Positions 29,307 through 41,086 of a DNA stretch of 55,699 nt are shown piece by piece (the first letter of the stretch is position 1; each line of letters starts with the position of its first letter). The notes beneath the pieces are model-generated. The model made no database searches, was not told the origin of the DNA, and saw nothing but the letters and a program-made list of their open reading frames with translations. The stretch covers positions 1 to 55,699 of the IMG/VR virus record IMGVR_UViG_3300032087_006210; one strand, 5' to 3'. Both the position numbers and the translations under genes were made by a program. The stretch comes from a virus (lineage: Duplodnaviria; Caudoviricetes).

Positions 29307-29528
29307 TGTTGATTGTATATTTTTTTGTTTGAATTTAAATAGGGCCGCCGATTTTTTTGATTTAGTAAAATTTTGTTTTGTTTGGTTTTGGTTTACATAT
29401 TGAAAAAAAGCACCCCCCGCCGTTATTATAAACATATCATAGTATAAAATTTCAAAAAATGGGTAGGGTTATTGTCAAAAACAATAATTTTAGGCCTAAA
29501 ATTTTTTTAATTTTTTTTGATTTAGGGC

Positions 29529-29556
29529 TTGCAATTTTCTGTGGTTCTGCTATACT
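29529..29556 (+). promoter_or_regulatory. First sigma70-type early promoter of the island
   Basis: TTGCAA-16-TATACT, nearly identical to promoters at 31448 and about 32666. Confidence 0.8.
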
Positions 29557-29601
29557 GTTTTCAGCAAGCGGGGGAAGACCCGCACAACATAAAAAAAAGT
29601 T

Positions 29602-29748
29602 ATGAAAGACATGAACAATACAGATAAGATGGAGCAGGGTTACGAGGAAGTTTGCACCGGATGCGGCGAGACAGTTTGCTTGTCAAAAGAAGAGCATGAT
29701 CAATGGGATCACGGATTCGACAACTTCATGTGCTGGGAGTGCGAATAA
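29602..29748 (+). CDS. 48-aa zinc-finger protein (not in ORF track)
   Basis: CTGC...CWEC; AAAGTTATG start after a hairpin leader. Confidence 0.7.
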   Translation: MKDMNNTDKMEQGYEEVCTGCGETVCLSKEEHDQWDHGFDNFMCWECE

Positions 29749-29805
29749 AAAAAGTTGAAAAAACTTGTTGACTTTCAAAAAAATTCTGATATACTGATCC
29801 CCGTT

Positions 29806-30072
29806 ATGAGAGATAAGAAACCATTTTTAAATGTTACCTTCAAAGTGGAGAAGAACCCAACCTACACCGGCAACCACTTCTCGGCCCGTGTTAACCGTGT
29901 CAAGGGCTGCACTTTCCCGCTTGGCACAACCGAGCAGGAAATGATCGACCAGTACCACAACCAAGTGGTGTTGGAGAAAGATATCGACGGCAACAAAGTT
30001 TTGGCTGGTGACATTCACCGCGTCGTTGAAATTGTCAACTGCTTTGAGGATCACGGCTACTTCAGCAAATAA
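29806..30072 (+). CDS. Early hypothetical protein
   Basis: TTGACT-16-TATACT-7-GTTATGAG start. Confidence 0.75.
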   Translation: MRDKKPFLNVTFKVEKNPTYTGNHFSARVNRVKGCTFPLGTTEQEMIDQYHNQVVLEKDIDGNKVLAGDIHRVVEIVNCFEDHGYFSK

Positions 30073-30125
30073 AAAAAAATTTCCTGTTGACTTTAACATC
30101 TGAATAGACAATAATTTTTCTGGTT

Positions 30126-30425
30126 ATGAGAACAAGAGACAATAACGAAACGGGCGGCTTCGAGCCGCATCAACGCAACCTCGGCGAAAAAGATTTCAGC
30201 AAGCGGCTGAACAATGAGGCCGAACGCTGCGAAGGAATGGCCAATATCAGCGCGGAAGACCTGCGCGGTATCAAGGAGGCTATCGCGGCGGGCTTCCAAA
30301 AGTTCATCCACAAAGACCGCAACATCTACGGCAAAAAAGTAGACCGTAGCCATATGCGCAACCCGTACAACGCGGGCAACTACAACTACGGCAGCAAAGA
30401 CCTGCCGAGCAACGGCACAATGTAA
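30126..30425 (+). CDS. Early hypothetical protein
   Basis: Own promoter, GTTATGAG start, hairpin after stop. Confidence 0.75.
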   Translation: MRTRDNNETGGFEPHQRNLGEKDFSKRLNNEAERCEGMANISAEDLRGIKEAIAAGFQKFIHKDRNIYGKKVDRSHMRNPYNAGNYNYGSKDLPSNGTM

Positions 30426-30491
30426 TCCTTGACGGGGTGCGCGCAAGCGCACCCCGTACTTGACAAACGAAATGCGAACATCTACAATGCC

Positions 30492-30719
30492 ATGAAGAAG
30501 CGAACGAAGAGCGAAGTCTTTAACGATTTTATCCAAGGAGAACCGGATATGCAGTTGAGAGAAAAATATTATATACAATGCTTTGACAAAAAAGTATTTG
30601 AAAAAGTGTCGGATGCACAAAAGCATGTTAAGAATCAGCAAAAGTATTACAAGACCAAGTCACGTATCTACCAATGCAAAATCTGTGGAAACTACCACAT
30701 CACAACAAAATTCAAATAA
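30492..30719 (+). CDS. Small zinc-finger protein
   Basis: YQCKICGNYHIT; TTGACA-17-TACAAT just upstream. Confidence 0.7.
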   Translation: MKKRTKSEVFNDFIQGEPDMQLREKYYIQCFDKKVFEKVSDAQKHVKNQQKYYKTKSRIYQCKICGNYHITTKFK

Positions 30720-30907
30720 TGAACCAAATAAACGTAAAGCCCGACCTAAAGGCAATTGAGCAAAAGATAAGAGAATTTAATCAACGATTCGACCCGCCCC
30801 GCGCAGAAAAAAAAGTTGAAAAAAAGTTATCAAAAGGGTTGACTCTGCGCTCAATATGGAATAAGCTTTTCTCAGCGGTTCGGAAGAACCCAAACACAAA
30901 AAAAGTT

Positions 30908-31123
30908 ATGATGACAACTGAACAAATCCTAAAGGAAATAGAGAGCGTACCACGCCACCACATCACCTACACTCGGCAGGATGGCCGCACCAACGAATAC
31001 ACGGTAGCCATCACCGAGCGTCACGCCGACCACATTATCGGCTACAAGTTCCAGAACGGCGAAAGCTGCGGCATTCGTCGATTCAACATCGACCAAATCG
31101 GTATCCTTGAGCCGGTCAGTTAG
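30908..31123 (+). CDS. Stand-alone WYL-like domain protein
   Basis: ITYTRQDG...IGY...IRRFNIDQI; own promoter TTGACT-17-TAAGCT; frame also open from 30719. Confidence 0.6.
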   Translation: MMTTEQILKEIESVPRHHITYTRQDGRTNEYTVAITERHADHIIGYKFQNGESCGIRRFNIDQIGILEPVS

Positions 31124-31335
31124 TGTAGACACCATGTGCATCTGGCGGGGCAGATGTAAAGCTAACCCCGACAATTTTGAGTCGGCGGAGTTAAATACCC
31201 CTGCGAGTTTTTATAGGCAGCTCGCGCCCGTTTTACTGCTGGTGGTGCGGCAGCGACTCAATAATCTGTGGACCCGTGTGTGCGTTGTCTACCTCATAAC
31301 AGTAAAACACCCCGCGAAAGCGGGGTGTTTTTTTT
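31124..31335 (+). ncRNA. Putative structured RNA ending in CCTCATAAC plus terminator
   Basis: Nested stems GTAGACA/TGTCTAC, TGCATCTG/CAGATGTA, TTGAGTCG/CGACTCAA, GCGAG/CTCGC; no credible ORF. Confidence 0.55.
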
Positions 31336-31356
31336 GAAAAAAAGTGAAGAAAAAGC

Positions 31357-31403
31357 TTGACGTCTAACGGCCGGCGGCCTTGCGCCCAAACGTTAGATGT
31401 CAA
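31357..31403. repeat. 47-bp dyad element copy 1
   Basis: TTGACGTCTAACG-GCCGGCGGCCTTGCGCCCAAA-CGTTAGATGTCAA. Confidence 0.95.
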
Positions 31404-31485
31404 CAAGAAAAATAAAAAAAGTTTTTTTATTTTTTTTAAAAAAAGGGTTGCAATTTTCTGTGGCTGTGCTATACTGTCTCCAGTT

Positions 31486-31629
31486 ATGAGAGATATGATT
31501 AAAAATGCTGAGTTTGCAAACTGGATACGCCAAGCGCAAAAAAAGGAATGGGAAATGATTCCCGAAGCCGAACGCCCCACATGGGAGCAGTTCAAACGCG
31601 GCTTAAAAAAGAAAAAAAATTCAAATTAA
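31486..31629 (+). CDS. Early hypothetical protein (47 aa)
   Basis: TTGCAA-16-TATACT-7-GTTATGAG. Confidence 0.65.
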   Translation: MRDMIKNAEFANWIRQAQKKEWEMIPEAERPTWEQFKRGLKKKKNSN

Positions 31630-31670
31630 CGCTTGCTTTTTTCTGAGAGTCTGATATACTTTTTTTCGTT

Positions 31671-31868
31671 ATGAGAGATATGTTTGATAATATGTACACG
31701 GTTCGGATTGCCAACTCTGGTGATGTTGCTGGTTTCGCACGTTCTCACGATGGTCTTGAAAAGGCCATCACGTTGGCCGCGCGGGAGGATACTGAGGTGA
31801 CCTTCGGCGGCGAGGTCGTTTGGCCGAATATACATTCTGCCACCATAAAGAATGGAGGTGCCAAATGA
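31671..31868 (+). CDS. Early protein, paralogue of 35492 gene
   Basis: Own promoter, GTTATGAG; FARSHDGLEKAITLA motif. Confidence 0.7.
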   Translation: MRDMFDNMYTVRIANSGDVAGFARSHDGLEKAITLAAREDTEVTFGGEVVWPNIHSATIKNGGAK

Positions 31869-32329
31869 TGTCGGCCAAATTAACAATGACCGGCAGCGAC
31901 GGATCGCGTTGCGTGGTGGACTTCGGTCTCGAAATGAGAGACCGTCCTTCCATCGATTGGCGCACACTTGAAAACGTTGAGTCAGCTTATACGTTCAGCG
32001 CGTCCGGTGAAATCTCAAATGATTCGTTTGGGCAAAATCTCGATGAAATGTATCGATTGAATGGTGATAACTATCTTTTTCGCCGTATATACAAATACTG
32101 GAAAAAATATCATCTAAATGATCTTCAAGCTGGCACTCAACAGCAAGCGGAAATTTTAAAAAAATGTCCATCAACAGATTACGATGATCGATGTGAATTT
32201 TTGAAAAAAAATGATCTGTATGTTGATCGCGGTTATACGTACGGCACAAAGTGGTTGACTCAAGTCATTCCCGACAATATAGTCAGCGAGATAAAAAAAT
32301 TGATAATTGAAGTGCGCGGCTGGAGTTAA
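31865..32329 (+). CDS. Phage hypothetical protein
   Basis: GGAGG SD, ATGA overlap; WKKYHLNDLQAGT...GYTYGTKWL. Confidence 0.7.
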   Translation: MMSAKLTMTGSDGSRCVVDFGLEMRDRPSIDWRTLENVESAYTFSASGEISNDSFGQNLDEMYRLNGDNYLFRRIYKYWKKYHLNDLQAGTQQQAEILKKCPSTDYDDRCEFLKKNDLYVDRGYTYGTKWLTQVIPDNIVSEIKKLIIEVRGWS

Positions 32330-32330
32330 A

Positions 32331-32540
32331 ATGAAAAAAATAATCTGTTTAGTTGGTGCGATCTGTTTAACAGGTTGCGTGGTTACCGAGAAGGAAATTG
32401 TGCATCGTAAAATATCGTTTGCCGATACTAACAGCGTCACAACGGTATATTATCCTCCGTCATGGGATAAGTTTGTCAAAGCTCCCGATGATGGCACGCC
32501 CAAAACTATGCTTGTGCGATTTGGTCAGGCGCTAGAATAA
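32331..32540 (+). CDS. Lipoprotein
   Basis: MKKIICLVGAICLTGC lipobox; terminator follows. Confidence 0.65.
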   Translation: MKKIICLVGAICLTGCVVTEKEIVHRKISFADTNSVTTVYYPPSWDKFVKAPDDGTPKTMLVRFGQALE

Positions 32541-32566
32541 AAAACGCACAAAGTGCGTTTTTTTTG

Positions 32567-32613
32567 TTGACGTCTAACGGCCGGCGGGCCGGCCGCGAAA
32601 CGTTAGATGTCAA
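32567..32613. repeat. 47-bp dyad element copy 2
   Basis: TTGACGTCTAACG-GCCGGCGGGCCGGCCGCGAAA-CGTTAGATGTCAA. Confidence 0.95.
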
Positions 32614-32704
32614 GCCTAAAATGCAAAAAATTTAAAAAAGTTTTTTTAAAAAAGTGAAAAAAGTGCTTGCAATTTTCTGAAGCTGTGATATACTGTTTTT
32701 CGTT

Positions 32705-32866
32705 ATGAGGGAAATCGACATCAAAATCCAAAAACTGGAAAAGGAAATCATGTTCGGCAAGTGGCTGGCCTTTGACCCGATCAAAGACCACCAGCTAAAA
32801 GTTCGTAAGTTTAACATCGAGAAGCGGAAGCTTCTCGATGCCGAAGCTCAAAAAAATAAAAAATAA
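32705..32866 (+). CDS. Early hypothetical protein (53 aa, not in ORF track)
   Basis: TTGCAA...TATACT-7-GTTATGAG; MREIDIKIQKLEKE... Confidence 0.65.
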   Translation: MREIDIKIQKLEKEIMFGKWLAFDPIKDHQLKVRKFNIEKRKLLDAEAQKNKK

Positions 32867-32908
32867 TTGTTGACTTTGAGCGCAAACTGTGATTTAATAA
32901 ACGGAGTT

Positions 32909-33148
32909 ATGAGGACGTACACGTTATACTGGAAGGACGAAGACACCAATAGGGTGCGCAGCGAAGAATTCTCCAACAAGACCGGTTGGGATCACTCTGC
33001 GATGAACGCGGCAATGGAGATGGCCGAAGAGGCCGACAAGAATGGGTTTCCGTGGGTGCTGGAAGAGGACGGTTGCCAAGTTGCCCACGGCAACAACGGC
33101 GACCTGCTCGGAGTCTATCGCTACCAAGGATTTCCCAAATTTGGCTAA
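32909..33148 (+). CDS. Early hypothetical protein
   Basis: TTGACT-17-TTTAAT-7-GTTATGAG. Confidence 0.7.
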   Translation: MRTYTLYWKDEDTNRVRSEEFSNKTGWDHSAMNAAMEMAEEADKNGFPWVLEEDGCQVAHGNNGDLLGVYRYQGFPKFG

Positions 33149-33195
33149 AAATAATTGTTGACTTTACCGAAAAACCTGATAAACTAATTTTTGTT

Positions 33196-33417
33196 ATGAG
33201 AGAAATCATGAACATATTCTATCGGCCCGAAATCCACAACGGGGTTATCAACAAGAACAACGACCTGCACAGCTATCGGATTGAGTTGGACGAATCTTTC
33301 GAGAATCGTTCAAACAACGAAAAGTTCGCTGGCATCGGCGGCACTTGCACCGAGACTGGCAAATACAAGCGGTTCCGCATGGATAGGTTGGAAGGTATGT
33401 TCCCCGTCGAAAACTAA
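33196..33417 (+). CDS. Second WYL-like small protein
   Basis: IFYRP...GTCTETGKYKRFRMDRLEG; own promoter and GTTATGAG. Confidence 0.55.
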   Translation: MREIMNIFYRPEIHNGVINKNNDLHSYRIELDESFENRSNNEKFAGIGGTCTETGKYKRFRMDRLEGMFPVEN

Positions 33418-33428
33418 AAATCAATAAA

Positions 33429-33908
33429 ATGAAAAAAATTCTTTTAAGCAAAAGTTTTAGAATCTTTTACTGGATCTGCTTGGCCATTGTTACCGTCTCT
33501 GCTTATGGAAACACGCACAAAAATCATCAACTCACTAGAGAGCAAAAAATTGTCGCCATTACCATTTTGGCGGAGGCCAGAGGGGAAGGGGAAGCGGGAA
33601 TGTATGCTGTTGGTGCTTGCATCGCTCAGAGAGCATTTGAAAGAAAACAAACCCCATCGGAGGTCTGTCTTAAAAAATGGCAGTTCAGTTGTTGGAACGG
33701 TAAAACCGTCAAAGACCTTGAGCATCTGTTGAAAGTACCGCAAGCCAAGTATGCAATTACCGTGGCCAAAAATGTCAAACATCTGTCGCGTGATTTCATC
33801 GGCTTCGCTAATCATTACCACGCAACATGGATGAAAAAGAAACCGTATTGGGCAAAAGGTCAAAAGCCTGTCAAAGTAATTGGACAACACGCATTTTACA
33901 AGCTATGA
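33429..33908 (+). CDS. Cell wall hydrolase, SleB/Hydrolase_2 family
   Basis: TILAEARGEG..GMYAV, QFSCWN, ANHYH, PYWA, IGQHAFY. Confidence 0.9.
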   Translation: MKKILLSKSFRIFYWICLAIVTVSAYGNTHKNHQLTREQKIVAITILAEARGEGEAGMYAVGACIAQRAFERKQTPSEVCLKKWQFSCWNGKTVKDLEHLLKVPQAKYAITVAKNVKHLSRDFIGFANHYHATWMKKKPYWAKGQKPVKVIGQHAFYKL

Positions 33909-34012
33909 AATCAATTAAGATAAACTGGAGTTTAGTTGACAAAAAAATTGAAATTGATATAGTCAAGGCACGCTTAAATCGTAACCGTAAATTAAAAAAG
34001 ATATTCAAATGA
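33905..34012 (+). CDS. Small basic protein
   Basis: ATGA-coupled on both sides. Confidence 0.4.
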   Translation: MKSIKINWSLVDKKIEIDIVKARLNRNRKLKKIFK

Positions 34013-34167
34013 AAAAACCATTGCCCGAACTGAACAGCGACGAAAAACTAATGCTGCGTTGTTACTTGAAAAAAATTATTCAGATTGGCGGCTTGTCCAA
34101 TCGCCTCGTCAAAATCATGGAATCGACTGACACAAAAACTCTGCAAAAAATTTCTTGTCCATCATAA
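34009..34167 (+). CDS. Small hypothetical protein (52 aa, not in ORF track)
   Basis: MKKPLPELNSDEKLMLRCYL... Confidence 0.45.
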   Translation: MKKPLPELNSDEKLMLRCYLKKIIQIGGLSNRLVKIMESTDTKTLQKISCPS

Positions 34168-34210
34168 CCTCATAACACTAAACACCCCGCTTCGGCGGGG
34201 TGTTTTTTTT
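34168..34210 (+). terminator. CCTCATAAC plus terminator
   Basis: CCTCATAAC-ACT-AAACACCCCGC-TTCG-GCGGGGTGTTTTTTTT. Confidence 0.85.
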
Positions 34211-34222
34211 CTAAAAAAAGTC

Positions 34223-34269
34223 TTGACGTCTAACGGTCGGCGGCGCCCCCGCGAAGCGTTAGATGTCAA
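34223..34269. repeat. 47-bp dyad element copy 3
   Basis: TTGACGTCTAACG-GTCGGCGGCGCCCCCGCGAAG-CGTTAGATGTCAA. Confidence 0.95.
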
Positions 34270-34352
34270 GCAAAAAAATAAAAAAAGTTTTTTTATTTTT
34301 TTTGGTATTAAGGGGTTGACATTCTCTGAGTTTGTGGTATTCTGATTCCGTT

Positions 34353-34508
34353 ATGAGGTTAGATCAACAGATCGCAGAGTTGGCCCAAGTTTCACTTGAG
34401 GAGGTTTTTCACAATGATCCCCACGCTCGCGCTGAATACGAGGCGCAGTGTGACATCTGGCGCGACGAAGCTATCGCCGCGCAGGATGAGGAGGTGTCCA
34501 ATGGGTAG
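34353..34508 (+). CDS. Early acidic protein (51 aa, not in ORF track)
   Basis: TTGACA-16-TATTCT-6-GTTATGAG; MRLDQQIAELAQVSLEEVF... Confidence 0.65.
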   Translation: MRLDQQIAELAQVSLEEVFHNDPHARAEYEAQCDIWRDEAIAAQDEEVSNG

Positions 34509-34719
34509 CCCGTTTGCCGATATCGATTGGGCGGACTATATGTCCACCTTTCCCACGGGCGACGCGCCCGCCAAGCGCAAGCCAGATCCGGCTTTTCCTG
34601 TGGCCGTGCGCCGTGCCGCTATGATGCTTTGGCTGAATGAATTCAAGCCCACCAAAAGCCCAAAAAAATTGGCTGAATTGGAAAAATTTTCTTTACTTGT
34701 TGAAAAATTTGTGCGATAA
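34501..34719 (+). CDS. Early hypothetical protein
   Basis: GAGGAGG SD then MGSPFADIDW. Confidence 0.55.
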   Translation: MGSPFADIDWADYMSTFPTGDAPAKRKPDPAFPVAVRRAAMMLWLNEFKPTKSPKKLAELEKFSLLVEKFVR

Positions 34720-34730
34720 TCTTTTTTGTT

Positions 34731-35072
34731 ATGAGAGAAATGAAAACCTATAAGTTCAAGCAGACCGACATGACACCGGAAGGTTTGCAGATAATCGAGG
34801 ACGGTCATGAGTTTTATTATGACCCCGAGGTCGAGCACGAGGATGATGTCAGTAAGATCTGGCACGACATCCATTGTGCTGTCACCACCAAGCGCGTGTT
34901 CCATCTCGACTGGTCGCCGTACTCCAAACCCTCCAGCATCGAACTGGAAATGTGGTTCTCGCTCGGCTGTCCTAATCGTTGGACTATCAACGACGGCAAA
35001 AGCGTCGGCAGCCTGACTAGGAAGCGGCTGCTCGAGGCGATGGGCCGCAACCTCAGTATCGAAGGATACTGA
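34731..35072 (+). CDS. Early hypothetical protein
   Basis: GTTATGAG start; EHEDDVSKIWH. Confidence 0.7.
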   Translation: MREMKTYKFKQTDMTPEGLQIIEDGHEFYYDPEVEHEDDVSKIWHDIHCAVTTKRVFHLDWSPYSKPSSIELEMWFSLGCPNRWTINDGKSVGSLTRKRLLEAMGRNLSIEGY

Positions 35073-35078
35073 GGTACG

Positions 35079-35152
35079 CGCGGGGTAGCCAAGTGGTAAG
35101 GCGGGAGTCTGCAAAACTCTTATCGGCGGTTCGATTCCGCCCCTCGCGTCCA
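35079..35152 (+). tRNA. tRNA-Cys(GCA)
   Basis: Cloverleaf: CGCGGGG/CCTCGCG acceptor, GGAGT-CTGCAAA-ACTCT anticodon arm, TTCGATT T-loop, U73 and encoded CCA. Confidence 0.95.
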
Positions 35153-35172
35153 AATTTTTTTTAAAAAAAGTC

Positions 35173-35219
35173 TTGACATCTAACGCTGGGCGGGCACGCC
35201 GCGAACGGTTAGAAGTCAA
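35173..35219. repeat. 47-bp dyad element copy 4
   Basis: TTGACATCTAACG-CTGGGCGGGCACGCCGCGAAC-GGTTAGAAGTCAA. Confidence 0.95.
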
Positions 35220-35301
35220 ACAAAAAACAAAAAATAAAAATAAATTTTTTTTCATTTTAGGGGTTGACTTATCTGAAAAATGCTGTATACTGATTTCTGT
35301 T

Positions 35302-35457
35302 ATGAGAGATAATGTTACTTGTGAGGAGGTTTTTGAGTTGCACGCGGATTCATGGGTTGCGGACGTTACTGTCCCGAACGGCTTCGACGATGTCGAGGCC
35401 GAGGCCGATGATCGGTGCTGGTGCAAGTTTTTTGAGTCATGCTCTGAATGCGCTTGA
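35302..35457 (+). CDS. Small acidic Cys-rich early protein
   Basis: TTGACT...TATACT-7-GTTATGAG; CWC...CSEC. Confidence 0.65.
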   Translation: MRDNVTCEEVFELHADSWVADVTVPNGFDDVEAEADDRCWCKFFESCSECA

Positions 35458-35491
35458 CTTTTTTTTAAATTTTGATATACTGTTTTTTGTT

Positions 35492-35707
35492 ATGAGGATT
35501 CATGCCAAATACTTTGTTGAGGTCAAGTCCGCCACCGGTCGGCTTGAGTTTGTCCATTGGTTCGCTCCGAGCCACGAGGGTCTTGAGGCTGCGATCACTT
35601 GCGCCCGTGAGGCCAAGTCCGCCGTCAAGTGCAAGGTCGCCCCGTGCGACCTGTCCAACTCTCCGTACGATTGGGAAATCGTATGGGAAGATCCCGAAAA
35701 AAATTAA
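35492..35707 (+). CDS. Early protein, paralogue of 31671 gene
   Basis: Own promoter, GTTATGAG; FAPSHEGLEAAITCA. Confidence 0.7.
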   Translation: MRIHAKYFVEVKSATGRLEFVHWFAPSHEGLEAAITCAREAKSAVKCKVAPCDLSNSPYDWEIVWEDPEKN

Positions 35708-35716
35708 TTTTTTTCG

Positions 35717-35763
35717 TTGACATCTAACGGCCGGCGGGGTCGCCGTGACAGATTAGATGTTTT
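35717..35763. repeat. 47-bp dyad element copy 5 (degenerate right arm)
   Basis: TTGACATCTAACG-GCCGGCGGGGTCGCCGTGACA-GATTAGATGTTTT. Confidence 0.9.
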
Positions 35764-35894
35764 TTTATAATTGCCTGATTATCAACATATTACAAAAGTA
35801 TAATTTATATATTTCAGGTTATTTAGTATTTATGTATTTACTATTTACTATTTCAGAGATTACTATTTGCAATAAAATAATTTATAGATAAAAT

Positions 35895-35924
35895 AAAAAA
35901 CCCCTCCCTTGCGGGAGGGGTTTT
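35895..35924. terminator. Terminator, minus strand or bidirectional
   Basis: AAAAAACCCCTCCC-TTGC-GGGAGGGGTTTT. Confidence 0.85.
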
Positions 35925-36080
35925 ATCGAACTATCCCCAATGCTAACCAGCGGAAACCTAAATGAAATACATCATGTATATAATAACAATGGTAACTTGT
36001 AACGCTCACACCGGAGCCCGACACCTCCCGCCCCAGATGGCTAGCAGATTCTGGGACGGGAGTGGGTTGTTGGCTGCGGC

Positions 36081-36314
36081 TTAGTTGCCGTTGGCCATAC
36101 GGGTCACGGTAGCCTTGTGGCCACGGTACTCGTAATCGGTCAGCTTGAACTGGCGACGAACAGCAGACTTGCTCTTGCCGGAGCGGATCGCGGCGCGAAT
36201 GTTGTTGCTGCGGTCGTTGCCTGTAGCAGTCGCACGGCGAGACGTCGGAGTCTCGGTCAATGCGTCAACTACTGCGCTGACGATTTTGGTAAGTTGGGAT
36301 TCAGTCAATTTCAA
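36081..36314 (-). CDS. Small basic HTH-like protein
   Basis: AAAGGA SD, TTG start, promoter TTGACA-17-CAAACT; IRAAIRSGKSKSAVRRQFKL. Confidence 0.65.
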   Translation of the reverse strand: MKLTESQLTKIVSAVVDALTETPTSRRATATGNDRSNNIRAAIRSGKSKSAVRRQFKLTDYEYRGHKATVTRMANGN

Positions 36315-36439
36315 TTGAATATTCCTTTCATTACATGGTTAGCATCAGGGCCACTTGGCCAGCACGCGAATGCTCCGTTATGCATCCCGCACTCCAAAAA
36401 GTTTGCACTAGTGTCTTCATGATGTCAACGATTAATCCA

Positions 36440-36538
36440 AACTTTTTTTGTGTTTTTCTTTCCGGGTGTACTTCGTTTTATCCCGGTGCACCACTGCAGG
36501 TGGCGCACTAAGTTTACGTATCTTCTTCCATATGTCAA
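36440..36538 (-). ncRNA. Promoter plus putative small two-hairpin RNA
   Basis: TTGACA-16-TAAACT then GCGCCAC/GTGGTGC and CCGGG/CCCGG stems; no ORF. Confidence 0.4.
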
Positions 36539-36656
36539 CAAGTTTTTTCAATTTAATTTTTTGATTTAATGTGTAGCATAATAGCAAACAATAAACCCCC
36601 CAATAATATAACTGCTAAATACACGGCCTGAAATATACTCGGTTGCTCGGTTCATG

Positions 36657-37598
36657 TCAAGCGTAACCTCCGCCGTGATGGGCCTTGATCGCACCGACTT
36701 GAGCCGGTGTGCATTTGTACATATCGCACAACTCATCACGGGTAAAACGAAAATATTTTAAATCTGAGGCAAGCTGAGATTTTTTCGAGTCGCTCAACGG
36801 CGCAGATTTTGGAGATTTTGGAGTGGCGCGGTTGATGCGCGAACGAATAGGATTGCAAACCTTCAAAACATCAGCACAATTGCTGAAGCCGATCATCATC
36901 ATCGGATGCTTTTGCGCTTGATACTCGACCGACATGATGCACTTGACCTTATTGCCCGTGCGTTCGTTAATGTAATCGACGACCACATCTGTGATGTGGT
37001 CGGCCATGATGCCGCCGCGCTCCTCAATCCTAGAATCAACAGCAGAAATAATTTCATCTGGCATACAAGACTTGGCAATGACGCAAGCGTCAAACGTGGC
37101 AAACACCAAACTATTATGGACAAAATTTTTGGGGTCAGTCACAATGTCCAAATTGGATTGACTCGGAACGCCCGTGAAATCATACCAAGCAGCAAAATTA
37201 TTTTTTGCGTGTTGGTTGCTGGGAATGTCACTCAAATGATATTCGCCGCTGAAATTAGGATAAAGATCGTTATCGTTACGCATAAAAGCGCGTGTCCCCG
37301 TTTGGGCGCAATATGTGGATTCGTCATTCTCAAAGCAATGCAAATTAATTTGGCCAGAATGCTTAACACCAAACATTGTGCTGATCTCGGACATTTGCAA
37401 ACTTCTAGCAGCAACAAAAGATTCAAAGTCCCAAAGTGTGGCTGGCAAACTGTAAACCGTGCCAACCTTCGCGGTGTATTTAGTGCCTTGCCTAGTCTTA
37501 ACAAAATTTTGCAAGCTATCTAGCCAAATGCTAAATGCTTTCATAACCCACACGCGCTGCTTGGCCTTTTCCTCGTTGACGCAAAGTGTCGTTTCCAT
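36657..37598 (-). CDS. Hypothetical protein, SAM-methyltransferase-like core with C-terminal HTH
   Basis: YSLP..., HCFEND, AAWYDFTG, VFATF pattern; leaderless ATG after TTGACT-16-TAAGAT. Confidence 0.45.
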   Translation of the reverse strand: METTLCVNEEKAKQRVWVMKAFSIWLDSLQNFVKTRQGTKYTAKVGTVYSLPATLWDFESFVAARSLQMSEISTMFGVKHSGQINLHCFENDESTYCAQTGTRAFMRNDNDLYPNFSGEYHLSDIPSNQHAKNNFAAWYDFTGVPSQSNLDIVTDPKNFVHNSLVFATFDACVIAKSCMPDEIISAVDSRIEERGGIMADHITDVVVDYINERTGNKVKCIMSVEYQAQKHPMMMIGFSNCADVLKVCNPIRSRINRATPKSPKSAPLSDSKKSQLASDLKYFRFTRDELCDMYKCTPAQVGAIKAHHGGGYA

Positions 37599-37687
37599 GC
37601 ACAAAATCTTACTACATAGACAGATAGAGTCAACCGTCTTTTTAAAAAAAATTTTAAAAAAAACTTACCGAAGGGAAGTTTTTTTGC

Positions 37688-37734
37688 TTGACATCTAACG
37701 GCCGGCGGGCCGGCCGCGAAACGTTAGAAGTCAA
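37688..37734. repeat. 47-bp dyad element copy 6
   Basis: TTGACATCTAACG-GCCGGCGGGCCGGCCGCGAAA-CGTTAGAAGTCAA. Confidence 0.95.
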
Positions 37735-37868
37735 GGAAAAAATGCACCTCCGGTGCATTTTTTTTGAGTGTAATTTTTTTTCGATTATTGTGTTTTTTAT
37801 GTTGCAATTCATCTCCAAATGGTGCATCATTTTTTCGTTGGCAATGAGGTCAACACCCTATCAAAGTT

Positions 37869-38636
37869 ATGACAGGTTTAATGTTACACTGCGGGGCGAA
37901 CCGAGTCGAGTACGGCGAAGTTCAGGATTCCGTGACGCCCGAGGCAACTCGGACGCACACGCCCATCCCCCATTCCCACCTCGTTGACCTAGTTCGCGAT
38001 GGTTTGGGCCGTGCGAATATGGCTATCCTTGAGGAAAGTCATGCTCTCACTCACGATGCAAATCGGTACTTCGGTTTGTTTCGCATCGGCACTGGTAGCG
38101 AATCCAGTGAATCTCAGGATTACGGTGCAGTCATGGGGCTGCGTAATTCTCACGACAAAACTTTTCCATCTGCGCTTGCGTTTGGTGCGAATGTTTTTGT
38201 CTGCGACAACCTCTCCTTCAACGGCGAGGTCAAGTTAGGCCGTAAGCATACGGTTCACATCCTCCGCGATTTGCCACAGTTGGTGTCCCGCACCATCGGC
38301 AAGTTGGGTGACGCATGGGGTTTGCAGAAGCAACGCTTCAACGCATACCGCGATCACGGGCTGTCCCGTTCCGAGGCGCACGATGTTATCATCGAGGCGT
38401 TCCGCGCTGGTGCTTGTACAAGCACGCAGATTCGCAAGGTGGTTGATCAATGGCACGCGCCAAACCACCCTGAGTTCAAGCCGCGCAATGCGTGGTCAAT
38501 GTTCAATGCCTTCACCGAGGTGTTGAAAGGCAACCTCAACGAGTTGCCCAAGCGCACGCAAGCTCTCCATGGTTTCATGGACGGTCACTGCGGGGTCAAG
38601 TTCGAGCGTCAGGCTGACGTCGTGCTGGAGGCCTAA
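37869..38636 (+). CDS. DUF932 family protein
   Basis: GLRNSHDKT...GANVFVCDNL...RKHT, NAWSMFNAFTE. Confidence 0.85.
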   Translation: MTGLMLHCGANRVEYGEVQDSVTPEATRTHTPIPHSHLVDLVRDGLGRANMAILEESHALTHDANRYFGLFRIGTGSESSESQDYGAVMGLRNSHDKTFPSALAFGANVFVCDNLSFNGEVKLGRKHTVHILRDLPQLVSRTIGKLGDAWGLQKQRFNAYRDHGLSRSEAHDVIIEAFRAGACTSTQIRKVVDQWHAPNHPEFKPRNAWSMFNAFTEVLKGNLNELPKRTQALHGFMDGHCGVKFERQADVVLEA

Positions 38637-38668
38637 CACCTTGGCCCTCCCTGCGGGGAGGGCCATGT

Positions 38669-38710
38669 CCTCATAACGCAAACCTACCCGCGCAAGCGGG
38701 TAGGTTTTTT
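38669..38710 (+). terminator. CCTCATAAC plus terminator
   Basis: CCTCATAAC-GC-AAACCTACCCGC-GCAA-GCGGGTAGGTTTTTT, preceded by a hairpin at 38642-38665. Confidence 0.85.
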
Positions 38711-38734
38711 CTTTGAATTTTTTTGATTTTTCCC

Positions 38735-38781
38735 TTGACATCTAACGGCCGGCGGGCCGCCCGCGAAGCGTTAGAAGTCAA
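38735..38781. repeat. 47-bp dyad element copy 7
   Basis: TTGACATCTAACG-GCCGGCGGGCCGCCCGCGAAG-CGTTAGAAGTCAA. Confidence 0.95.
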
Positions 38782-38849
38782 CCAAAAACTTTTTTAAAAA
38801 AAGTTTTTTTAAAATTTGACATTCGGCCGCTTTACTGTAGACTTGGGGC

Positions 38850-39059
38850 ATGGAAACAAATAAGAGCCATCAAATGGAATCTTTTCTTGAAAACATGGGC
38901 CAGCAATTGTTTGGCCGCAGTCGCGAGGTTTCTTCCGACAACCAATTGTGCATTTCATGCGGCGCAGATGCAAATCATTTCCGTGATGAAATTTCACGCA
39001 AAGAGTACGGCATATCTAAGCTGTGTCAAACGTGTCAAGATTCTGTGTTTGGGGGTTGA
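38850..39059 (+). CDS. Small zinc-binding phage protein
   Basis: CISC...FRDEISRKEYGISKLCQTCQD; leaderless after TTGACA-16-TAGACT. Confidence 0.75.
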   Translation: METNKSHQMESFLENMGQQLFGRSREVSSDNQLCISCGADANHFRDEISRKEYGISKLCQTCQDSVFGG

Positions 39060-39093
39060 CATTTGCACAGATAGCTGTTAAATTTTTTTTGTT

Positions 39094-39726
39094 ATGAGAA
39101 TGACCGTCAAAGAAGTCACACAGAAAGTTGGTTCGTTGTCCAAGCCGTCCAAGATGCCGGGCCACGGATACAGCACGCCAGCAAAAGATTGTATCACGGG
39201 CAGCAAGCTGGCCAAGATAGTTGATTCTATCTGTTCAATTTGCTACGCCAAAAAAGGCCGTTATGTTTTTCCGAATGTTATCGCGGCAATGGAAAAACGG
39301 TTAAAATCTTTAAGTAGTTTGCATTGGGTGGACTACATGGTTTTTCTTATCGGCAAGCAAGAGAAGAGCGGATATTTTCGCTGGCATGATAGCGGCGATG
39401 TTCAAGGTGTCTGGCATCTTGAGAAGATTGCAGAGGTTGCAAGGCGATTGCCCAACATTAAATTTTGGTTGCCAACCAGAGAATACGGTTTCGTGCGGGA
39501 GTGGATGAAATTCGCTAAAGTGCCAAAAAATTTGACAATAAGACTGTCCGCTTACATGATAGACGGCAAGCCGCCAACTAGCTTGGCAAAAAAATTAGGA
39601 TTAACAACAAGCGGTGTTTCTCCTGACGGGTTCAACTGTCCAGCCTCAAAACAGGACAACCAGTGCGCCGAGTGCCGCGCTTGTTGGGACGGTTCGGTTG
39701 AGAATATCAATTACAAAAAGCACTGA
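39094..39726 (+). CDS. GP88-like Cys-rich protein (radical-SAM-related)
   Basis: CSICYAKKGRY, FRWHDSGD, WLPTRE, CPA...CAECRACW. Confidence 0.8.
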   Translation: MRMTVKEVTQKVGSLSKPSKMPGHGYSTPAKDCITGSKLAKIVDSICSICYAKKGRYVFPNVIAAMEKRLKSLSSLHWVDYMVFLIGKQEKSGYFRWHDSGDVQGVWHLEKIAEVARRLPNIKFWLPTREYGFVREWMKFAKVPKNLTIRLSAYMIDGKPPTSLAKKLGLTTSGVSPDGFNCPASKQDNQCAECRACWDGSVENINYKKH

Positions 39727-39733
39727 GGTTGAT

Positions 39734-39763
39734 AAAAAAAATCTCCGAAAGGAGATTTTTTTT
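39734..39763 (+). terminator. Intrinsic terminator
   Basis: AAAAATCTCC-GAAA-GGAGATTTTTTTT. Confidence 0.85.
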
Positions 39764-39765
39764 CC

Positions 39766-39812
39766 TTGACATCTAACAGGCTGCGGGGTCGCCGCGCCGC
39801 GTTAGATTACAA
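39766..39812. repeat. 47-bp dyad element copy 8 (degenerate)
   Basis: TTGACATCTAACA-GGCTGCGGGGTCGCCGCGCCG-CGTTAGATTACAA. Confidence 0.9.
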
Positions 39813-39972
39813 ATTTATTAAAATTTTATAATTATATATCGCGCCCTTTATTTGTTATTAAGTTATTTATAATTCACTTATTTGTATTTGCCTTATTTAC
39901 AATTTATTTATTTACAATTATATTATTTACTTATTTAGTGTTTATTTATTTAGCTTTTTATTATTTACAATT

Positions 39973-40173
39973 CTATTTTTTATCCGGCCCATTATATATT
40001 ATTACATTGACATATTCGCTATCTTCGTAATCGTTGAGTGCCATGTTGCCGGTCGCCGCTTCCCACATACGAGAGATCTTCACCTTGTTGGAGGTCGTGG
40101 AGCTTTGCTCCACGACCTCCCTCCGCATATCCTCGATATGCTTACGCTGTTTTTGACTTGACATCTGTATCAA
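39973..40173 (-). CDS. Hypothetical protein
   Basis: 66 aa downstream of RuvB-like gene. Confidence 0.5.
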   Translation of the reverse strand: MIQMSSQKQRKHIEDMRREVVEQSSTTSNKVKISRMWEAATGNMALNDYEDSEYVNVIIYNGPDKK

Positions 40174-41086
40174 TATAATCGCTACCTGCCTTGGTGATAT
40201 GCCGCTTGCCGTCGATCTTAATAAGATTTTTCTTCATCAAATAAAGTTCAACGTCACGTTGAATCGCAGTACGACTCATGCCAGTTTTCGCGCACAACTC
40301 CTGCAACGATGCCTGACCTTCCTCGCGCAAAATCTTGAGAATTTTTTTCTCAATGTGACTCACGCCCAACGGATTGATACCCAACTGGTCGCAGAAGTCA
40401 GGGAAATCAGATTCCATGAATATCTTCGACCCCTTCGCGGAGCAAAACAACTCAATATCTTTTGCTCGTTTAACACAATCTCGCGCATTGCCGCGAGACG
40501 TTTCAGCCAACTTGACCAGCACCGATTCCTCAAACGAAATATCTTCGCATTGAGATTCAAGAATTTTTGCCAATTCAGATGCAGAATAATCCTCAAAATC
40601 AACTGTCGTGAGGCGATCTTTGAGCGGCGGGAACAACTTGTCTGGCTCGGTTGTAGCAAACAAAAAAGTCTGCTTCTTGAAGTCAAACGGGTATTCGCCG
40701 TCGCGCCAACGAAAGTCGCGGGTATGTCCGCGCTCAGTATTAAATACCGTGAGGAACGCATTGGTTACGTCCTTGGGCAACTCATGTGCCTCGTCGAACA
40801 ATACGGTGATCTCGTTGTCCATGACGAGCGGAATATAAATCTGGTCGAAGAATCCCTCCAGATTTTTTATTGTGGAGCAGTTAAGCTCAAGAAATGGGCG
40901 GGACTTACCATCTTGATTGCTCAAGTTACTGGCAAATTGCCGCGCAAACTCAGTTTTACCCAACCCCTTGGCCCCAACGAGCAATAGGAACGGGCAAATA
41001 CTTGTATTTTCAAACGCTTTTAAATAAAATTTTAAGCGTTTCTTGACGTTGTTTTGTCCAAACAGTTCAGCAAATGGTTCTGACAT
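40142..41086 (-). CDS. ruvB: RuvB-like AAA+ Holliday junction branch-migration ATPase
   Basis: FGQNNVK, GAKGLGKT, LFDEAH, ATTE...PLKDR, SRGNAR, C-terminal winged helix. Confidence 0.8.
   Translation of the reverse strand: MSEPFAELFGQNNVKKRLKFYLKAFENTSICPFLLLVGAKGLGKTEFARQFASNLSNQDGKSRPFLELNCSTIKNLEGFFDQIYIPLVMDNEITVLFDEAHELPKDVTNAFLTVFNTERGHTRDFRWRDGEYPFDFKKQTFLFATTEPDKLFPPLKDRLTTVDFEDYSASELAKILESQCEDISFEESVLVKLAETSRGNARDCVKRAKDIELFCSAKGSKIFMESDFPDFCDQLGINPLGVSHIEKKILKILREEGQASLQELCAKTGMSRTAIQRDVELYLMKKNLIKIDGKRHITKAGSDYIDTDVKSKTA

Follow-up and report, generated by a model that had tools for sequence, protein, structure and literature searches.

The 55,699-bp window analysed here is the whole of the IMG/VR virus record IMGVR_UViG_3300032087_006210 (CheckV completeness 37%, from which a full genome of ~150 kb is estimated), and its early array carries eight copies of a 47-bp dyad. 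We propose, at a probability of roughly one half, that this dyad is a putative two-fold symmetric protein-binding site, operator- or enhancer-like in character, which is embedded in modules resembling the promoter early stem-loops (PeSL) of T4-type phages. The earlier note on this DNA had favoured a recombination site related to integron attC, and had named a regulatory protein-binding site and PeSL-like cassettes as alternatives; these alternatives fit the evidence better.

In the proposed mechanism a dimeric or tetrameric factor would read TCTAACG and GCGG in each half of the dyad and, sitting at about -82, -92, -102 or -112, would act on RNA polymerase at the first promoter of a gene unit. 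Phased and probably bent A/T tracts of ~45-55 bp lie between the dyad and a strong sigma70-type promoter with extended -10. Such a factor could turn all units on or off together, or could insulate the units from each other. Comparison of relatives shows that the repeated modules double as crossover points at which cassettes are deleted, moved or inverted.

Eight dyads in the window

The 47-nt pattern of the earlier note, searched with up to 3 mismatches, recovered seven of its eight copies (31357, 32567, 34223, 35173, 37688, 38735, and 39766), compared with 0 matches in 100 shuffles; each copy was matched on both strands because the element is palindromic. The remaining copy at 35717, with a decayed right arm (ATTAGATGTTTT), was matched by the core pattern TCTAAC-N23-GTTAGA once 1 mismatch was allowed, and scored 37.5 bits with a profile built from 134 copies. 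Without filters, this profile returned exactly these eight dyads from the full 55,699 bases, the next best match reaching 7.6 bits. All eight reported positions were thus recovered, and scans of other contigs gave further copies, mostly in marine metagenomes. The copies in the window are as follows (no strand is assigned).

31357-31403: dyad copy 1, 44.5 bits, inner right half GCGCC instead of CCGC
32567-32613: dyad copy 2, 53.2 bits
34223-34269: dyad copy 3, 53.9 bits
35173-35219: dyad copy 4, found by pattern and profile, immediately after tRNA-Cys (35079-35152)
35717-35763: dyad copy 5, with the decayed right arm, followed by AT-rich 7-8-bp repeats and no promoter
37688-37734: dyad copy 6, between the divergent minus-strand promoter of a 315-aa gene and the DUF932 gene
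38735-38781: dyad copy 7, 55.3 bits
39766-39812: dyad copy 8, outer right hexamer decayed to TTACAA; AT-rich repeats with a 15-bp period come after it at 39848-39982

The dyads are restricted to 31.3-39.8 kb, i.e., 8.5 kb of 55.7 kb, and on reading the sequence all eight are intergenic, as had been claimed. Open reading frames (ORFs) that begin at the dyad's own TTG are a mechanical output of the ORF listing and were discarded. The description of the copies as same-oriented holds only through minor asymmetries, a GGYC-like left spacer and a GAAR right spacer, by which the plus strand outscores the minus strand in seven of the eight; otherwise the element is palindromic. Orientation of the A-rich spacer was considered as a direction signal and rejected: it does not predict the side on which the promoter lies (67 vs 81 of 144), and the uniform asymmetry in the window therefore probably reflects shared descent.

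The dyad is conserved in sequence, not in structure

The consensus reads, from left to right, T-run, c, TTGACA TCTAACG, SYYS, GCGG, SSNSS, CCGC, SRRS, CGTTAGA TGTCAA, g, and A-run. Its layout is symmetric (13+4+4 / 5 / 4+4+13), with no unmatched base, an inner stem of 4 bp and a spacer of 4 nt in each arm. The arms and GCGG/CCGC are kept while the N4 and N5 positions vary, in the relatives as in the window, in line with the earlier description. The TCTAAC and GTTAGA cores are invariant or nearly so among relatives, and TCTAACG and CGTTAGA remain near-invariant even in those whose genes share only 65-80% identity.

The two arms vary independently of each other. In 134 copies (132 distinct) hairpin pairing was found in 81.4% of cells vs 83.7% in partner shuffles, both sides had changed in 4 cells vs 27 expected, the observed covariation was reached by 500 of 500 shuffles, and there were no compensatory changes between arms. 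The spacers keep their purine/pyrimidine pattern (SYYS and SRRS) without pairing. The outer TTGACA is present on one side only in 122 of the 182 unique dyads, and in dyads with exactly one strict promoter this hexamer lies on the far side in 31 of 42. The single strands do fold well, at -11 to -16 kcal/mol with z of -3.1 to -5.2, but palindromy alone produces such folding. These comparisons show that the dyad is conserved in sequence and not in structure; since the arms vary independently and do not covary, each half appears to be kept for its own sequence, which is how an operator, a protein site on duplex DNA, would be expected to behave. Within each half TCTAACG and GCGG are ~10 bp apart, a spacing that would put all four conserved blocks on the same face of the helix.

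Dyads and promoters are in helical phase

Strict promoters (TTGNNN, spacer, TGnTAnnnT) were found 73 times on 350 unique dyad sides. The distance from the dyad centre to the first base of the extended -10 falls into clusters at 69-72, 80-81, 88-92, 98-101, and 114-115, and a Rayleigh test on 39 spacer clusters, which are partly non-independent, peaked at a period of 10-10.5 bp, with R=0.60 and p ~7e-7. With the -10 box beginning at -12, the dyad centre would lie near -82, -92, -102 or -112. At dyad 37688 the distance to the divergent promoter is 100 bp from the centre. The spacers between dyad and promoter are composed of A-tracts and T-tracts. Steps of 10 bp are typical of a protein site that has to face RNA polymerase, and the fixed phase suggests a stereospecific upstream site, for which this pattern would be expected.

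The dyad is part of a composite module

Units of the array begin in a recurring order: terminator hairpin with T-run, dyad, A/T tract, promoter, and near-leaderless start. The dyads had been described as placed mostly after a terminator or the tRNA, and this was borne out: a hairpin plus T-run lies upstream in 6 of 8 cases (31357, 32567, 34223, 37688, 38735, and 39766), tRNA-Cys precedes the dyad at 35173, and the dyad at 35717 is preceded by neither. The further statement that an A/T tract and a sigma70 promoter follow stands for five of the eight dyads, after which A/T tracts of 44-53 bp lead to sigma70-type promoters with -35 boxes at 31448, 32667, 34316, 35264, and 38816; the exceptions are 37688, where the promoter is divergent and on the minus strand, and 35717 and 39766, which have none. 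The parts of the module are listed below.

31305-31343, plus strand: terminator module (hairpin, T8, A7) before copy 1; repeat family D11, homologues at 34180-34218 and 38681-38719
32540-32565, plus strand: terminator hairpin plus T-run before copy 2, from reading the sequence
39733-39763, plus strand: A8-hairpin-T8 terminator before copy 8; family D5, homologue at 37655-37686 before copy 6
31404-31447, no strand: phased A/T tract between dyad and promoter; families D1, D6, and D8, equivalents at 32614-32666, 34270-34315, 35220-35263, and 38782-38815
31448-31475, plus strand: sigma70-type promoter with extended -10 (TGnTATACT); families D3 and D4, equivalents at 32667-32694, 34316-34343, 35264-35291, and 38816-38843
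37606-37633, minus strand: divergent promoter TTGACT-16-TAAGAT of the 315-aa gene; the -10 starts 100 bp from the dyad 6 centre and the ATG follows 7 nt after the -10
31483-31490, plus strand: start motif GTTATGAG, one of 12 copies between 29803 and 39091

The start motif GTTATGAG occurs at 29803, 30123, 31483, 31668, 32702, 32906, 33193, 34350, 34728, 35299, 35489, and 39091, that is, 12 times vs 0.16 expected, and at 9 of the 12 sites it lies 6-7 nt after a -10 box. Transcripts from these nine sites would begin ~3-4 nt before the ATG, so that the mRNAs would be near-leaderless and lack a Shine-Dalgarno sequence. Repeats within 29400-40400 comprise a 91-nt one that joins dyad and A/T tract (6 copies), an 89-nt one that runs from the A/T tract through the promoter to the start (4 copies), promoter-and-start repeats of 50-68 nt, whose families have 5-8 copies, and a 39-nt terminator repeat (3 copies); the composite is repeated at 60-84% identity across at least 90 nt.

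A further observation concerns the ends of the units. The sequence CCTCATAAC stands 7-9 nt before three terminator hairpins (31293, 34169, and 38670); read on the opposite strand it is the start motif GTTATGAGG, and the 3' ends of units could therefore pair with mRNA 5' ends.

A candidate binding protein and points against a binding site

One candidate for the factor is a conserved helix-turn-helix (HTH)-like protein encoded within the array.

36081-36314, minus strand: 77-aa protein, candidate DNA-binding regulator; fold matches not significant

Its C-terminal segment has 14 invariant columns in the 16 sequences from contigs encoding the protein, and the structure model places three C-terminal helices there with a predicted local distance difference test (pLDDT) value of 96. 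A comparison with PDB sequences gave one chance-level match (E 0.9). The protein as dyad binder is only a lead from modelling. If the dyad is an operator, one small protein may govern the whole early programme via six or more phased sites.

Several results weigh against a regulatory binding site and its proposed binder. The copies were gathered by patterns that require the arm cores, and part of the core invariance is therefore by construction. A strict extended -10 promoter stands beside only 70 of 182 dyads, and even the loose pattern beside 145 of 182; the decayed dyads at 35717 and 39766 are followed by AT-rich short repeats with no sigma70-like promoter. In the window 8 of the 12 promoters with GTTATGAG are internal and lack a dyad, so the dyad is not required for promoter activity as such; what it marks is the promoter that comes first after a terminator, and not every promoter. 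The Rayleigh p overstates independence, the spacers being related by descent, and the 10-bp steps could stem from A-tract units of ~10 bp. For the 77-aa protein the nearest folds are HTH folds (TrpR, NarL/GerE, and sigma region 4), all with E >1, and no family was found in Pfam (E up to 1) or PHROGs (E up to 0.01).

Cassettes are rearranged between relatives

The earlier note had inferred an array of self-contained promoter-gene(-terminator) modules that are shuffled, and the relatives bear this out by loss, movement and inversion of cassettes. Whole cassettes distinguish relatives that are 94-98% identical. In L091 window positions 35465-35708 are missing, with the junction in the T-run between the promoter TTGAC and the dyad, and a joint from 35458 to 35709 (6-nt overlap) coexists with the full form in DNA sequencing runs from two studies; the 250-bp cassette at 35459-35708, which consists of a single promoter and a 71-aa gene, is a natural polymorphism. 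In L074, from which 38850-39091 is absent, the junction is at start codons and no dyad takes part. Insertions are present in noncoding 31177-31264 in L050 and L005, and gene order is altered in L026, L018, L046, L049, L095, and L005. L077, L009, L080, and L055 have the DUF932 cassette inverted and at another place, and homology there switches inside the dyad: the dyad interior follows the left flank, and the right arm onward follows DUF932. Further joints, among them 29531 to 32689, 31678 to 32908, and 32715 to 29780, were not counted as circles or deletions because their sides are only 22-46 letters long and lie at promoter or start repeats.

Alignments at >=80% identity have 2796 internal ends, 318 of them within -30 to +40 of a dyad centre, and other peaks lie at promoters and terminators; at 1-bp resolution the ends accumulate at the far arm and the A/T tract. 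In 106 dyad pairs with one-sided homology the 21-nt interior is either identical at 20-21 of 21 positions or close to the random baseline (~13 of 21, with 11.7 for random pairs), and the crossover therefore lay in either arm. The earlier note had asked whether breakpoints fall at the G/TT of GTTAGA; some lie inside dyads, in either arm, and others outside, in the adjoining T-run or at a start codon. This pattern would fit exchange driven by homology or microhomology in the conserved parts of the module, and since the dyad is palindromic, each pair of copies forms a direct and an inverted repeat at once. As judged by comparing genomes, homology-driven cassette shuffling is demonstrated as a consequence of the repeated modules.

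Distribution of the dyad

A scan of metagenome contigs gave 102 marine contigs with the dyad (the names shown include TARA and marine ENA assemblies), and a scan of viral contigs gave two related contigs (L005 and L007) plus one chance match. Among 185,579 prokaryote species, represented by one genome each, there was a single match, the 2.1-kb contig L110 from a Flavobacteriaceae metagenome-assembled genome (MAG); it holds two complete dyads and, at the contig end, the opening 13 bases of another, and is probably phage DNA binned by mistake, which would say nothing about the host. Cultured phages gave no dyad match. From the marine contigs and the single prokaryote match we conclude that the dyad belongs to a widespread uncultured phage group and not to a host operator family. 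Near-identical DNA is present in 20 public runs from 9 studies, mostly seawater, and the dyad can serve as a mark of this widespread group of uncultured marine phages.

Genes in the window include a RIIA homologue, the large terminase (TerL) and a glycosyltransferase. TerL shares at most 29% identity with cultured phages, its best matches being Bacillus and Clostridium phages, and no T4-type genus is named among the matches listed; TerL and the DUF932 protein have distant matches only. By megablast no cultured relatives of 29500-40500 were found, and by blastn one dyad-plus-promoter module gave matches to its A/T tract only. The arm 12- and 13-mers TTGACATCTAAC and CGTTAGATGTCAA had 0 occurrences in the main text of the papers searched.

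Alternative explanations of the dyad

The dyad might be passive DNA with no dedicated protein, either a GC-rich clamp or a cruciform-prone palindrome that serves as a topological or transcriptional insulator; its main part in evolution would then be to provide extra homology in PeSL-like modules. We consider this unlikely, though it accounts for several features: every dyad is flanked by a T-run on one side and an A-run on the other within AT-rich DNA, it marks unit boundaries after terminators, its single strands fold with the energies given above, and rearrangement breakpoints occur in and near it. However, the invariance of TCTAACG and CGTTAGA at 65-80% gene identity exceeds what a GC clamp needs; the lack of compensatory change and the one-sided hexamers weaken a cruciform, the extrusion of which is also disfavoured by the 4x4 mismatch; and a stereospecific contact is suggested by the helical phase between dyad and promoter. 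Action at the RNA level, the dyad being an RNase III-type processing hairpin or a terminator in read-through RNA, is in our view hardly credible. RNase III sites of stem-internal loop-stem shape stand between the early genes of T7, and the dyad resembles them; three window copies also have G.T where G.U would pair in RNA. Against this, the dyad follows strong terminators and precedes promoters, and is therefore mostly untranscribed, and in relatives it is found between divergent promoters. The T-run comes first and the A-run after, the reverse of a terminator, the arms do not covary, and Rfam gave no match at the dyads, its sub-threshold matches in 29400-40100 being terminator-like leaders. 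Four runs labelled RNA-Seq may be DNA; one of their contigs spans a dyad and the untranscribed A/T tract, and these runs speak neither for nor against transcription. A selfish miniature palindrome that has spread through intergenic DNA, similar to repetitive extragenic palindromic (REP) sequences or miniature inverted-repeat transposable elements (MITEs), would explain a short intergenic palindrome in many copies, some decayed or one-armed, and in contexts as varied as after a tRNA or between divergent genes. We hold this to be improbable: the dyad is confined to 8.5 kb of the window and, among the prokaryote genomes, to one 2-kb MAG contig, it has a constant place and phase within a larger module, and it is kept at matching positions in distant relatives. 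The features that would identify a REP or MITE, namely dispersal, target duplication and a RAYT/Y1 transposase, were not seen: there is no direct-repeat duplication, the flanks being a T-run and an A-run, and no Y1 transposase (PF01797) in three partial genomes.

In the recombination reading, the dyad would be an attC-like or new type of site at which cassettes are excised, inserted and inverted by a recombinase whose gene lies in the host or in the 60% of the phage genome outside this record. We give this very little credence, and no more to its wider form, a dedicated cassette-shuffling machinery of lytic marine phages with its recombinase in the unseen part of the genome, integron-like but with self-expressed promoter-gene-terminator cassettes. 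In that case cassettes could be excised, inserted or inverted at the palindromic sites, with the variable 21-bp interior going along with one flank. Homology between relatives does switch within dyads, with the interior moving as a block with one flank, and the window is only 37% of the genome. The attC core words that the earlier note had seen are present in part: RTCTAAC fits RYYYAAC in 8 of 8 left arms, and the right arm fits GTTRRRY in only 4 of 8, the others being three GTTAGAA and one ATTAGAT; a degenerate 7-nt word can also match by chance. On the other side are the conservation of sequence rather than structure without covariation between arms, the mostly one-sided outer hexamer (122/182), the lack of extrahelical bases, the inner stem of 4 bp, and cassettes that bear their own promoters. 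A hypervariable interior is unexpected for the overlap region of a duplex tyrosine recombinase, and the 21-bp interior of the dyad is hypervariable; serine recombinase sites need a central dinucleotide, which the odd length of the dyad does not provide. Crossovers are found in the left or the right arm, and some lie beyond the dyad, in the T-run or at a start codon. As the earlier note had said of the window, no recombinase is visible: no integrase (PF00589), resolvase (PF00239) or Y1 transposase was found in the three partial, partly overlapping genomes G000, G001, and G003 (138.6 kb in total). Of the proposed recombination-site system, the shuffling of modules and some breakpoints in dyads stand; the structure-recognised attC-like site is not supported, and the attC-like reading is unlikely. 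The protein-binding site in PeSL-like modules remains our preferred reading.

Neighbouring features

The 315-aa protein (36657-37604, minus strand) is conserved, and its leaderless divergent promoter lies 100 bp from dyad 6. It has no Pfam or PHROG match (E up to 0.01), and its model (pLDDT 85.7) shows a weak likeness to Rossmann methyltransferases (template modelling score 0.25-0.38); it is not a recombinase. Downstream of the 77-aa gene, noncoding 35926-36080 is 72-80% identical in several relatives (alignments begin at ~35982-36036) and could be a 3' untranslated region or a small RNA. After the decayed dyad at 35717, positions 35803-35853 hold AT-rich TATTTAC repeats with a 7-bp period. 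After the one at 39766, positions 39848-39982 hold ~8 copies of TTATTTAC-type units with a 15-bp period, adjoining the minus-strand gene (40142-41086) of an AAA+ clamp-loader-like protein with a C-terminal winged helix; this block may be an origin or iteron region. The manA RNA motif RF01745 was found in L005 (11580-11759) and L050 (190-371) at 56.3 and 55.7 bits (cut-off 55.2), in the noncoding stretch before a terminator; the window is without it, with a gap near 31264. G+C content in 2-kb windows is 0.41-0.46 within the 30-40 kb early array vs 0.33-0.43 in the rest of the contig.

Comparison with known systems

Dyad operators well upstream of promoters include the phi29 p4 site near -82, the class I CRP sites at -61.5/-71.5/-82.5/-92.5, the Fis sites upstream of rrnB P1, and the KorB operators of RK2. 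Like these, the dyad is symmetric, lies several turns upstream and keeps a fixed helical face, often with bent A/T DNA in between, and several copies would coordinate many promoters. Unlike these, it is 47 bp long with a GC-rich 21-bp middle and lies further upstream, at ~-82 to -112, and the protein is a candidate only. The dyad gives a handle on how early, host-takeover genes are organised and rewired in such phages.

With integron attC sites, as described by Nivina et al. (2016, PMC5027507), the dyad shares inverted cores similar to RYYYAAC...GTTRRRY, an adjoining unpaired bubble, a variable middle, and a position between gene cassettes; its folded shape of stem, 4x4 bubble, short stem and loop recalls the R box, unpaired central spacers, L box and variable terminal structure of that account. 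There attC is conserved in structure and not in sequence, recognised as a folded single strand, has an L box with 2-3 extrahelical bases on one arm, 5-6-nt central spacers and a length of 57-141 bp, has a single crossover point, located in the R box, and operates with IntI and attI on mostly promoterless cassettes read from the common promoter Pc (PMC5027507). Unlike this, the dyad keeps its sequence and not its structure, lacks extrahelical bases and an L box, measures 47 bp with spacers of 4 nt per arm, has no one fixed crossover point, and comes, in the three partial genomes, without IntI, attI or Pc; the window has 12 cassette promoters with GTTATGAG starts.

The closest likeness is to the PeSLs, which Arbiol et al. 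(2010, PMC2839356) and Comeau et al. (2014, PMC4122927) describe as made up of a stem-loop, AT-rich DNA, a sigma70-like early promoter and a translation start, located between small ORFs in the variable region of T4-type phages. Recombination between neighbouring PeSLs also forms mini-circles; in the contigs of public runs covered here, joints that run backwards had short sides at promoter repeats and are no proof of such circles. The modules in the window have the same composite of terminator stem-loop, AT-rich region, sigma70-like promoter and start, are likewise repeated between small ORFs and found at insertions, deletions and replacements between close relatives, and have variable crossover points inside the module, e.g., between the -10 box and the ATG. 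They differ in having near-leaderless starts instead of Shine-Dalgarno sequences and in the extra 47-bp palindrome, far better conserved and promoter-phased, which is not part of the PeSL description in the text available from these two papers. The carrier differs too: the phage is not T4-like by its TerL, and is not a T4-like myovirus although a RIIA homologue is present. The modules would thus extend the PeSL idea of regulatory cassettes as crossover points beyond T4-type phages, with a palindromic component that allows inversion besides deletion.

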